Assembly: GCA_040398075.1 (NCBI GenBank)
Contig: JBBAUR010000009.1
Coordinates: 7,702 to 71,701, forward strand
Direction of reading: 5' to 3'
Length of the DNA stretch: 64,000 nt
Source of the DNA: Bdellovibrionota bacterium
GTDB taxonomy: Bacteria; Bdellovibrionota_C; UBA2361; OMII01
Program-made: the position numbers and the translations under genes
Part shown: positions 15,026-40,006 of the stretch, piece by piece
How positions within the stretch are numbered: the stretch's first letter is position 1
How the letters are laid out: each line of letters starts with the position of its first letter
Notes under the pieces: generated by a model
Seen by the model: only the letters and a program-made list of their open reading frames with translations
What the model was told of the DNA's origin: nothing
Databases searched by the model: none

Positions 15026-15658
15026 TCACTCCCCCTTCTGGGCCAGCCCCCGGCGCTCGATGGCGACCAGCTCCACCTCCACCTCCTCCAGGGAGGTCCG
15101 TGCCCTTCGAGCAGCAGAGGACAGCCACTCCTCGGTGGGACCTGCGCCGGCTCCTAGTCGCTCCAGCCAGTGGCGGACGGAGTACAGGTCCCGGCGCAGG
15201 CAGACCAGGGCTTCTCGTCGGGCGTCAGCGTTCATCGTTGGACCTCCCTGGCATCAGCTGGCTGGGCACACGCTTGTCCACACGGAGGTGGGCGACCAAC
15301 ACCTCCTGACGGGTGTGCCAGTCGAGGCGCGGCAGGTCGTAGTCGTGGTCGTAGCCGCAGGTGGGACAGATCTCATAGACCCGTGGGAAGTCCGGTGGAC
15401 GGGAGGAGCTCATCGGCCCGTCCCCGCCGCGTACTCCAGGAGTCCCTCCACGTCCTCCGCGCTGATCCGCGCAGCCTGACGGGCCGACTCCACGGCCGTC
15501 TGCAGACCGGTCAGGTCGTCGTCCACGGCACCGCTTGCGTTCCACTCCACCGTCCCCAGGTCGTAGAGGATATCGGCCGCCTCCACCAGCATCCGGTGGA
15601 CCCGTCGCAGGTTGTGAGCCTTGACGGCGTAGAACTGTTCCGCTGAACCATCCTTCAT
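15026..15658 (-). CDS. three small hypothetical proteins (15026-15235, 15225-15413, 15410-15658)
   Basis: Coupled ORFs; the middle one has CxxC. Confidence 0.5.
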
Positions 15659-15732
15659 GACACCACGTCCCTTCTCGTTTAATCGGGAATATTCGTCTTC
15701 AAGGTAAGGTGGCCGGTTTATCGGATTAAGTC

Positions 15733-15814
15733 TGGGCGCCGTCGGAGGGGATCGAACCCACGTGTATCCAGCTACCCTTTCGACGGTTTAGGAAACCGAG
15801 GGGATACGACGGCG
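15733..15814 (-). tRNA. atypical tRNA-Arg(CCT)-like RNA lacking a canonical D-arm
   Basis: CGCCGTCG/CGACGGCG acceptor plus CCA, CGGT-TTCCTAA-ACCG anticodon arm, GGGTTCGATCCC T-arm; abuts the CCA of tRNA-Tyr. Confidence 0.75.
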
Positions 15815-15899
15815 TGGTGGAGGGTGTCCGATTCGAACGGACGTAGGCTGTGCCGACAGATTTACAGTCTGCTCCCTTTGACCTCTCGGGCAACCCTCC
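15815..15899 (-). tRNA. tRNA-Tyr(GTA)
   Basis: GGAGGGT acceptor, GCAGA-CTGTAAA-TCTGT, variable arm, encoded ACCA. Confidence 0.93.
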
Positions 15900-15950
15900 A
15901 GGCGACGGACCATCCTACCCGGACCGGTCCGTCTCGTATACTGTCAATCG

Positions 15951-16023
15951 AGCTGACAGGGGGACTCGAACCCCCGACCGCCGGTTTACAAAACCGGTGC
16001 TCTACCGACTGAGCTAGGTCAGC
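15951..16023 (-). tRNA. tRNA-Thr(TGT)
   Basis: GCTGACC acceptor, canonical D-arm, CCGGT-TTTGTAA-ACCGG. Confidence 0.93.
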
Positions 16024-16024
16024 T

Positions 16025-16102
16025 TGGTGCCCGCCGCGGGATTCGAACCCGCACTAGAACGAGTTTTAAGTTCGCCGCCTCTGCCTGTTGGGCCACGCGG
16101 GC
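16025..16102 (-). tRNA. tRNA-Leu(TAA) with short variable region
   Basis: GCCCGC acceptor, GCGAA-CTTAAAA-CTCGT, GGTTCGAATCC, ACCA. Confidence 0.85.
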
Positions 16103-16141
16103 AGGTGGTCGGCGCCCACTCACGGGCGCCGACCAAGGCGG

Positions 16142-16441
16142 TCAGCCGACGTCGATGGTGCCGTCCACCACGAAGGCGAAGGGCGCCCGGGCGTCGCTGC
16201 GCCGGTTGATGTCGTAGGCGCAGCGGTATGCGTCGCGACGGTTGCTGAAGGTGTGGGCCTCCGCCAGGCTGCTCCACATGTCGGTGGCTCGACCCGTGTA
16301 GACGGGGCGGTTGAGGTACCGACGGCCGTCGCGGTTGGCCACCACGTAGACGGGAGCCCGGGCGGCGAAGATGCTGAAGGCGGTGCGCGGGCTGGGGGCG
16401 GCGTTCGAGGCGATGGTCTTGACGTTGTTGTTCTTGCGCAT
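16142..16441 (-). CDS. hypothetical protein within the tRNA cluster
   Basis: 99-aa ORF with high-GC3 codon usage. Confidence 0.6.
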   Translation of the reverse strand: MRKNNNVKTIASNAAPSPRTAFSIFAARAPVYVVANRDGRRYLNRPVYTGRATDMWSSLAEAHTFSNRRDAYRCAYDINRRSDARAPFAFVVDGTIDVG

Positions 16442-16489
16442 GTGTTGTACCGTTCTTTCCTTCGAGTGACGTTGGGGTTTGAGGGTCTG

Positions 16490-16563
16490 CGCGCCCGGCC
16501 CGATTCGAACGGGCGACCTGGGGATTAGAAGTCCTCTGCTCTATCCATCTGAGCTACGGGCGC
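16490..16563 (-). tRNA. tRNA-Arg(TCT)
   Basis: GCGCCCG acceptor, GCTCAGATGGATAGAGC D-arm, GAGGA-CTTCTAA-TCCCC. Confidence 0.93.
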
Positions 16564-39900: not shown

Positions 39901-39979
39901 GCGGGCGTCGCCAAGAGGTATGGCAGAAGATTTCCAATCTTCCGCGAAAGCATCGTCGGTTCGAATCCGTCCGTCCGCT
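39901..39979 (+). tRNA. tRNA-Gly(TCC) with extended variable arm
   Basis: GCGGGCG/CGTCCGC plus T73, GAAGA-TTTCCAA-TCTTC, 12-nt variable region with GC-GAAA-GC hairpin, GGTTCGAATCC. Confidence 0.85.
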
Positions 39980-40006
39980 CCGAAGGCAGTGATCGTCGTG
40001 AGACTT

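Follow-up and report, generated by a model that had tools for sequence, protein, structure and literature searches.

Can a transfer RNA (tRNA) give up the D hairpin at its usual place, carry the D loop on the far side of the anticodon arm and still serve as a tRNA? This question is raised by a 77-nt gene at 15737..15813 (−) in a 64,000-nt stretch of DNA, hereafter the window, from a Bdellovibrionota bacterium (assembly GCA_040398075.1, contig JBBAUR010000009.1, positions 7,702 to 71,701). A preliminary description of the locus, made from the sequence alone, had proposed a tRNA-Arg(CCU)-like gene with the D loop moved to the 3′ side of the anticodon arm, and the comparative analysis reported here bears this out. 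The gene belongs to a family of conserved RNAs with a three-way junction, in which the ends are those of a tRNA, the anticodon arm is nested in a covarying helix and a D-loop-like strand runs into the T stem. On the strength of these comparisons, we consider it probable (roughly three chances in four) that the window gene is a functional elongator tRNA-Arg(CCU) of non-canonical architecture.

The gene extends from G1 at 15813 to the discriminator G at 15737. RNA position p corresponds to window coordinate 15814 − p, all parts named below lie on the reverse strand (−), and the reverse complement of 15733-15814 is the string quoted in the preliminary description. The acceptor stem (GCCGUCG/CGACGGC, 7 bp, followed by the discriminator G) has its 5′ strand (RNA 1-7) at 15807..15813 and its 3′ strand, as placed by the family alignments, at 15738..15744; all seven pairs vary on both sides within the family. 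A U8-A9-U10 connector (15804..15806), with U8 and A9 at their canonical positions, leads into CCC (RNA 11-13, 15801..15803), the 5′ strand of a long-range helix that was assigned by covariation and by RNAalifold. The anticodon arm (15784..15798) consists of a stem of 4 bp plus a U.U (15795-15798 with 15784-15787), all four pairs of which covary, and of the loop UUCCUAA, which is canonical in form (7 nt, U33, purine A37) and presents the anticodon CCU at 15790-15792. On its 3′ side follow a U-C-G-A-A-A connector (15778..15783; U-N-G-A-A-A in the family consensus) and GGG (RNA 37-39, 15775..15777), the 3′ strand of the long-range helix, identified in the same two ways. The displaced D-loop-like strand, U-A-G-C-U-G-G-A-U-A-C-A-C, occupies 15762..15774, so that the string U-A-G-C-U-G-G-A-U-A lies 3′ of the anticodon arm. 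The T arm (15745..15761) has the stem GUGGG/CCCUC, with a U.U mismatch at the second pair, and the loop UUCGAUC. Behind the discriminator stands the tail C-C-C-A (15733..15736).

Between the acceptor stem and the anticodon stem, eight bases were counted (U A U C C C C U), and there is no D hairpin among them, which agrees with the gap of about 8 nt stated beforehand. Two other details of the preliminary description had to be changed. It had paired CCCT with AGGG across the anticodon arm; this long-range helix is real, but covariation places it one base further 5′, as CCC/GGG at 11-13/37-39. An acceptor stem of 8 bp with an encoded CCA was not upheld, as the relatives have 7 bp and a discriminator, and in this reading the window gene ends in G, CCC, A and holds no exact CCA. 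A base before G1 that can pair with the discriminator is present in 32 of 39 Arg-type members, many of them close relatives. A nested pairing of U8-A9-U10 with the A-U-A in GGAUAC was also considered and rejected: it fits the first three Arg-type sequences, and the Ile-type members have no complement for it.

Relatives of the gene were collected with several sequence patterns. One that combined the D-loop-like string with the T arm matched nine viral loci, with the same layout in the loci L024 (anticodon UCU) and L025 (CCU). A second pattern kept the two connector motifs fixed and left free one helix position per side, the anticodon arm and all bases that follow U-A-G; it matched at least 118 viral loci in IMG/VR, and all but two of those listed were tRNA-like with the same layout, mostly with the anticodons UAU or GAU. 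Two further patterns, with a non-C at helix position 12 or 13 and the remaining helix free, added 64 and 3 viral loci. Among their tRNA-like matches, the helix was complementary in every case, as CGG/CCG, CUC/GAG, CGC/GCG and AGG/CCU and in the further versions AGA/UCU, AUC/GAU, CCG/CGG and CCU/AGG, while it was not complementary in the few matches that were not tRNA-like. An additional pattern scan of IMG/VR gave eight loci. When one genome per prokaryotic species was scanned, 28 loci were obtained; 23 were tRNA-like, with a complementary helix in 23 of 23, and the five random matches were all non-complementary. Finally, a metagenome scan with GGA fixed and the anticodon free returned 53 loci with 36 unique tRNA-like members. 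In total, the family counts well over 150 viral contigs, about 40 metagenome contigs, 23 cellular genomes and at least 83 records of cultured phages. The preliminary description had suggested a covariance-model search of phage genomes and had regarded a lack of homologs with this topology, together with an RNA neither processed nor aminoacylated, as a sign of a decayed tRNA; homologs of the same topology are abundant, including those with other anticodons.

The secondary structure was evaluated on 159 unique members taken by a regular expression that was blind to the helix. The long-range helix was fully complementary in 158 of them, in 15 different versions, and the exception (L048) pairs in a shifted register. 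In an alignment of 102 members (A2), the four proposed helices were 98.6% paired and reached a covariation score of 0.875, compared with 0.18 for shuffled sequences and 0.10-0.18 with slid partners. On the same alignment, the long-range helix was 100% paired, with changes on both sides at all three pairs. On a further alignment (A3), it was 99.1% paired and the acceptor stem 98%, and both-side changes were found in 19 of the 20 pairs tested. The acceptor, anticodon and T stems covary strongly as well, with a score of 0.87 compared with 0.19 for shuffles, and RNAalifold, run de novo, returned exactly the same 19 pairs. A tRNA pseudogene or a fragment left at an attachment (att) site should show decay and no compensatory change; the members have covarying pairs, full length and both acceptor strands.

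With a covariance model built from the alignment (R1), most members reach 79-100 bits, and a small number of copies that are truncated or defective score 50-72 bits. The window gene obtains 83.3 bits, and the other Arg-type members lie between 78.7 and 85 bits. Canonical tRNAs are clearly set apart, with at most 24 bits for those of the host genome and approximately 25-29 bits for those in the phage loci. A search of the window for TAGCTGGATA-N(3-8)-GGTTCGA gave one match, and 100 shuffles gave none; together with the R1 score of the gene against those of the canonical host tRNAs, this indicates that the layout is not due to chance.

That standard tRNA scanners would probably miss such a gene or call it a pseudogene had been expected, and for ARAGORN a miss was indeed observed. 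The program made no call for the window gene at default settings, and neither lower thresholds nor its mitochondrial or intron mode changed this; it called only 1 of 118 family pattern matches, missing the other 117. The Rfam tRNA model (RF00005) gives the gene 25.2 bits, below the cut-off of 29, and needs an 18-nt variable insert to do so; in this alignment, the acceptor stem, anticodon arm and T arm align and the D arm is deleted (15 model positions). With the tRNA-Sec model (RF01852), the gene scores 19.6 bits at a cut-off of 47. A borderline case is the member of Streptomyces phage Coruscant, which reaches 29.8 bits with RF00005. Measured against a canonical tRNA, the window gene possesses the acceptor stem, the T arm and the anticodon arm, but neither the 5′ D stem-loop nor a passing score or scanner call.

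The displaced strand carries the signals that connect the family to translation. After the helix, it reads U-A-R-N-N(-N)-G-G-N in the family, followed by 2-4 bases, C-A-Y and the T stem, and the GG recurs even in matches to patterns that did not prescribe it. The purine of this strand that resembles R15 varies together with the base before the T stem: G-C was found 130 times, G-U 11, G-G 10 and A-U 8 times, and A-C and A-G never (on A3: GC 121, GU 10, AU 7, other 10). More A...U cases come from divergent members and from the phages EGole and Kehishuvirus 'tikkala'. The R15-Y48 Levitt pair of tRNAs behaves in just this way.

Directly after the GG, the base is A in all 39 members with an Arg anticodon (CCU 21, ACG 7, UCU 5, CCG 3, UCG 2, GCG 1), and the 120 members with UAU (87), GAU (25) or CAU (8) have U there in 119 cases and C in one. 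The discriminator follows the same division: 30 members of the Arg class have G, 8 have A and 1 has U, and all 120 members of the Ile/CAU class have A. Conversely, the metagenome scan in which GGA was fixed and the anticodon left free retrieved Arg anticodons only (36 of 36), so the association holds in both directions. A displaced base that tracks the amino-acid class would be most simply explained by synthetase recognition. A20 is a major determinant for arginyl-tRNA synthetase (ArgRS), and the identity set of bacterial tRNA-Arg comprises A20, C35, U/G36 and A/G73. All 39 Arg-type members have an anticodon of the form N-C-U or N-C-G, and the window gene combines CCU with G as an allowed discriminator. 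We infer that the A after the GG takes the spatial position of A20. The preliminary description had singled out the displaced GG and this A20-like base, and had supposed that the L shape and the Arg identity may be retained; the conservation of GG, the Levitt-like covariation and the tracking of Arg anticodons by A all support this.

How could such an RNA fold? In the proposed architecture, the block equivalent to canonical positions 10-21 would be swapped with the block 22-47, which would leave a normal core with a reconnected backbone. The chain would pass from the acceptor stem through U8 and A9 into the descending D strand (canonical positions 22-25, with RNA 11-13 as 23-25) and the anticodon arm, and from there through a connector of 5-6 nt into the ascending D-stem strand (canonical positions 10-13, with RNA 37-39 as 10-12). 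It would continue with the counterparts of A14, R15, G18, G19 and N20, an A21-like A and a Y48-like base, and enter the T stem. For the window gene, A15773 would correspond to A14, G15772 to R15, G15769 and G15768 to G18 and G19, A15767 to the Arg identity base A20 and C15762 to Y48 (all on the reverse strand). A D-stem-like helix stacked on the anticodon stem, the U8-A14 and R15-Y48 pairs, the interaction of G18 and G19 with the T loop and the position-20 identity base would all be kept. Each new junction connects residues that lie next to each other in the canonical fold, so that the RNA could retain the stacking layers, the arm length and the contact of its D-loop-like strand with the T loop. 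If the core contacts form, the L shape and the distance from the anticodon to the acceptor end would be preserved. The host ArgRS would then charge the RNA by way of A15767, C35 and the discriminator G, and the charged tRNA would read AGG codons in the service of the integrated, GC-rich phage-like element that carries it.

Several points weigh against this functional interpretation. The three-dimensional equivalences are a model drawn from general knowledge of tRNA architecture, and the long-range helix comprises only 3 bp. Folding of the single sequence gives a minimum free energy structure that is not tRNA-like and does not exceed shuffled sequences in stability (z = −0.96), a type of calculation that is uninformative for a long-range helix of 3 bp. 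C14-U15 and the U-N-G-A-A-A connector were fixed by the search patterns, and their conservation is not independent evidence; the UAU connector was likewise imposed, and UAC was met in 1 of 159 members, caught with a freer regular expression. The window copy shows no exact CCA (G-CCC-A) and has the U.U mismatch in its T stem. The host carries a canonical tRNA-Arg(CCU) on another contig (C56), and among the sequencing runs listed as carrying this stretch there are no RNA runs. A demand for an AGG-decoding tRNA is consistent with the frequency of this codon, which is about three times higher in the open reading frames (ORFs) of the island at 8-33 kb than in those of the host (20.1 versus 7.0 per 1000 codons), but the comparison is a crude one, made on the longest ORFs and not on called genes.

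Among the alternatives, a conserved tRNA-shaped RNA that acts outside decoding holds up best. It could be a decoy or competitor for host anticodon nucleases or for defence toxins directed at tRNAs, a sponge for modification enzymes, or a regulatory or primer RNA, and its topology would bar it from the ribosome or the synthetase. An architecture unlike that of all canonical tRNAs counts in its favour, and a specific target in the host could lie behind the restriction to Ile and Arg, the only amino-acid classes represented. CCA directly after the discriminator is encoded in just 19 of 39 Arg and 19 of 121 Ile/CAU members; however, canonical phage tRNAs often have no encoded CCA either. The features that follow the anticodon class, namely the position-20-like base and the discriminator, are synthetase identity elements, while a decoy for an anticodon nuclease would require the anticodon loop only. 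Moreover, the anticodons are diverse (six for Arg, three of the Ile/CAU type) and match rare or phage-favoured codons, and the acceptor stems are intact and covary. On balance, we regard a role outside decoding as unlikely.

A functional family of which the window copy is a decaying remnant, left in an old integrated element, appears more improbable still. It would account for the tail CCC in place of CCA, for the T-stem mismatch and for the tRNA-Arg(CCU) that the host has of its own. It would also agree with a search of 35 other genomes of the same family with R1, in which no copy was found among the candidates scored (at most 133 per genome, so that copies could be missed). A DNA search of relatives of the host genome gave a match that was limited to the tRNA-Tyr part, and BLAST of the window gene against the phage collection gave no match. 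The score of 83.3 bits, however, falls inside the Arg-type range. None of the four helices and none of the conserved single-stranded bases is damaged, and 29 of 160 members have the same U.U mismatch (12 of 39 Arg, 17 of 121 Ile/CAU). An independent metagenome contig (L296) holds a copy identical to the window gene, including the tail. In contigs from four DNA runs of four studies, 15600-15880 (281 bases) differs at 0-3 letters, and none of the differences listed lies inside the gene; in the same runs, 16100-16490 shows dozens of changes and indels. As an identical copy exists elsewhere and a near-invariant stretch borders on a variable one, the window copy looks maintained.

Finally, a rearranged precursor that becomes a canonical cloverleaf by splicing, trans-splicing or circular permutation has its precedent in the permuted and split tRNA genes of a red alga and of archaea, but is highly improbable here, because the acceptor strands already lie at the gene ends and make a permutation of termini unnecessary, the sole anticodon hairpin precedes the D-loop string, so that removing a single segment cannot restore the canonical order, the long-range helix is itself under selection, and the intron mode of ARAGORN yields no sensible model.

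With a functional tRNA-Arg(CCU) as the preferred interpretation of the window gene, a more general proposal can be put forward tentatively, at somewhat less than even odds. The family may form a whole class of translating tRNAs whose D domain is permuted in the backbone while the core layers are kept. The class would have a single origin, and switches of the anticodon would have carried it to nine or more anticodons of the Ile, Arg and CAU types in crAss-like, actinobacterial and uncultured large phages and in the tRNA arrays of Cytophagales. It may persist because the altered connectivity changes how host nucleases and modification enzymes view the RNA, but not how ArgRS, IleRS, EF-Tu and the ribosome do. 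Evasion of host nucleases that target tRNAs is one possible benefit; like the decoy role, which the preliminary description had also suggested, it is offered as speculation.

To our knowledge, every cytosolic-type tRNA is taken to be a cloverleaf with its D hairpin on the 5′ side, and the exceptions known to us are mitochondrial losses or changes in stem length. With a canonical class I tRNA-Arg (RF00005), the window gene shares the 7-bp acceptor stem, the 5-bp T stem with the usual T loop, the 7-nt anticodon loop with U33 and A37, the GG, bases resembling U8 and A14, a discriminator of the G/A type, the A at the equivalent of position 20 (by the general identity rules) and the location in a tRNA gene array. 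It differs in its D domain: the interval from position 9 to position 26 holds no D hairpin, a strand of the D stem and the entire D loop stand 3′ of the anticodon arm, and the junction is three-way, with the anticodon arm enclosed by the D-stem-like helix. Permuted and split tRNA genes, as in Cyanidioschyzon and Nanoarchaeota, yield a canonical mature tRNA after processing. Their segment order is non-canonical as well, but the acceptor ends of the present genes are the gene ends, and the order must persist in the mature RNA.

Other departures from the cloverleaf were compared with the available text of two publications. In mammalian mitochondrial tRNA-Ser(AGY) and nematode mitochondrial tRNA-Ser, the D arm is absent, a short connector joins the acceptor and anticodon stems and the molecules are flexible (PMC7609411). 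As far as that text goes, the present family resembles these tRNAs in having a short connector and no D hairpin, but unlike them it keeps a D-stem-like helix, the GG strand and a canonical T loop, measures 76-78 nt and occurs in phages and bacteria. Allo-tRNAs and tRNA-Sec-like molecules, which were found in metagenomes and phage tRNA clusters, have 8/4 or 9/3 branches, a D stem-loop and a long V arm (Mukai et al., PMC5389517). In contrast to what is given there, the branch of the rewired RNA is 7/5, its D domain is reconnected and its 13-nt strand holds no conserved hairpin. No description of the layout was found by full-text literature searches, in Rfam 15 or by term searches of the available text of PMC7609411 and PMC5389517; subscription papers and supplements lay outside the reach of these searches, and a prior description is possible. 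The family is apparently undescribed so far.

The data mean that, in hundreds of genomes of phages and bacteria, selection maintains a backbone connected in another way, with the core and the identity bases apparently preserved. If these RNAs are charged and used, the tRNA fold tolerates an internal permutation. This would have consequences for models of tRNA origin, for our view of D-domain recognition by synthetases and RNase P and for the engineering of orthogonal tRNAs. Inventories of phage tRNAs would then be systematically undercounted for AUA, AUC/U, AGG, AGA and CGN codons. As carriers are available among cultured Streptomyces, Rhodococcus and Bacteroides phages, the question is directly testable.

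Regarding these cultured carriers, BLAST with one member returned 83 records, which are 82 Streptomyces phages of approximately 131-135 kb and the Rhodococcus phage Peregrin. Other members match the Streptomyces phage Coruscant, a crAss-like macaque phage and the Bacteroides phage Kehishuvirus 'tikkala'. The member lies at approximately 93496-93571 in Peregrin (MH153807) and at approximately 73025-73101 in Coruscant (MT711976). In 23 of the 25 BLAST-matched records listed, no feature is annotated at the member. In EGole (L310, MK494112, 75265-75341), it is annotated as a tRNA-Leu reading UUA; the anticodon loop reads GAU, and the label is probably an annotation artefact from a forced cloverleaf. 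The copy of Kehishuvirus 'tikkala' (L311, OQ198717, approximately 95576-95652) is unannotated and lies between tRNA-Trp and tRNA-Met in a stretch that, as shown, holds 10 annotated tRNAs; its acceptor stem contains two U.U mismatches. A setting within tRNA arrays is common, as ARAGORN found 721 canonical tRNAs in the 124 loci scanned.

The cellular members include genes of Achromobacter anxifer (CCG), of a metagenome-assembled genome of Rhodoferax (UCU) and of a group of Cytophagales. The latter (Chryseolinea, Chryseosolibacter, Ohtaekwangia and others; loci L227, L229, L231, L232, L235, L236, L238, L245 and L251) have a UAU member with one conserved acceptor stem. Most of these copies reside in chromosomal tRNA arrays of up to 17 genes, and at two loci ARAGORN finds no tRNA. 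The UAU member may be a cellular decoder of AUA. Some of the Cytophagales loci have flanking protein genes in common.

On nine viral contigs (L155, L164, L167, L178, L182, L194, L197, L204 and L209), two members stand 7-180 nt apart. Where both could be read, one is of the GAU type and one of the UAU type, and the second copy has A at the R15-like and U at the Y48-like position. Divergent genes of the same layout, with other connectors, were seen at L208:1610-1698 (−), L208:4577-4657 (−), L212:1681-1759 (−), L187:5614-5692 (+), L048:5487-5565 (+) and L122:9511-9585 (+), and one divergent gene carries an extra hairpin of about 20 nt between the D-loop-like strand and the T stem. Divergent members of this kind, with other connectors or an inserted hairpin, score 33-55 bits with R1. 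They suggest that the class is broader than the search patterns captured.

Returning to the window, the rewired gene adjoins tRNA-Tyr in a tRNA cluster on the same strand, as had been described before, and is separated from the CCA of this neighbour by a single base, C15814. The tRNA-Tyr(GUA) with its encoded CCA lies at 15815-15899 (−), followed by tRNA-Thr(UGU) at 15950-16023 (−), tRNA-Leu(UAA) at 16025-16102 (−) and a canonical tRNA-Arg(UCU) at 16489-16563 (−), all called by ARAGORN and all upstream of the rewired gene. The tRNA-Leu(UAA) comprises 78 nt including CCA, scores 41.4 bits with a short variable region in the Rfam alignment and looks like a class I-type tRNA.

The cluster is part of an island at 8000-33000 with 58-72% G+C, compared with 45-52% in its flanks (the host assembly has 4.15 Mb and 54% G+C), and most ORFs of the island match no Pfam or PHROG family. 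The left part of the window encodes a phage lysozyme, a sigma factor and AAA ATPases, and many of its ORFs match no family; scans of the ORFs neighbouring the gene with Pfam and PHROG gave only generic ATPase or FGE-sulfatase matches or none. From about 38 kb on, there are ordinary cellular genes (chaperonin, PrkA/DUF444/SpoVR, carbamoyltransferase, histidine kinase). We read the left part as an integrated phage-like element. Its borders were not located, and on the contig (C9) there is no direct repeat of a tRNA-Gly-like gene at 39901-39981 (+). This gene, which sits at the border between phage-like and cellular genes, was called by ARAGORN as an 81-nt tRNA-Gly(UCC) and has a long, class II-like variable region that is unusual for a glycine anticodon.

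A second member of the rewired family was not found in the same assembly. Dense tRNA arrays are present on two of its other contigs, with 15 genes on C35 (23278-31295) and 10 genes on C72 (6106-8531); two tRNA-Ile(UAU) and several tRNA-Arg(UCU) are among these genes, which ARAGORN reads as canonical throughout. Among the other loci, L077 holds a tRNA-like element of 59 nt (1125-1183, +) with an acceptor stem, a T arm and a very short middle, which scores 30.4 bits with R1.

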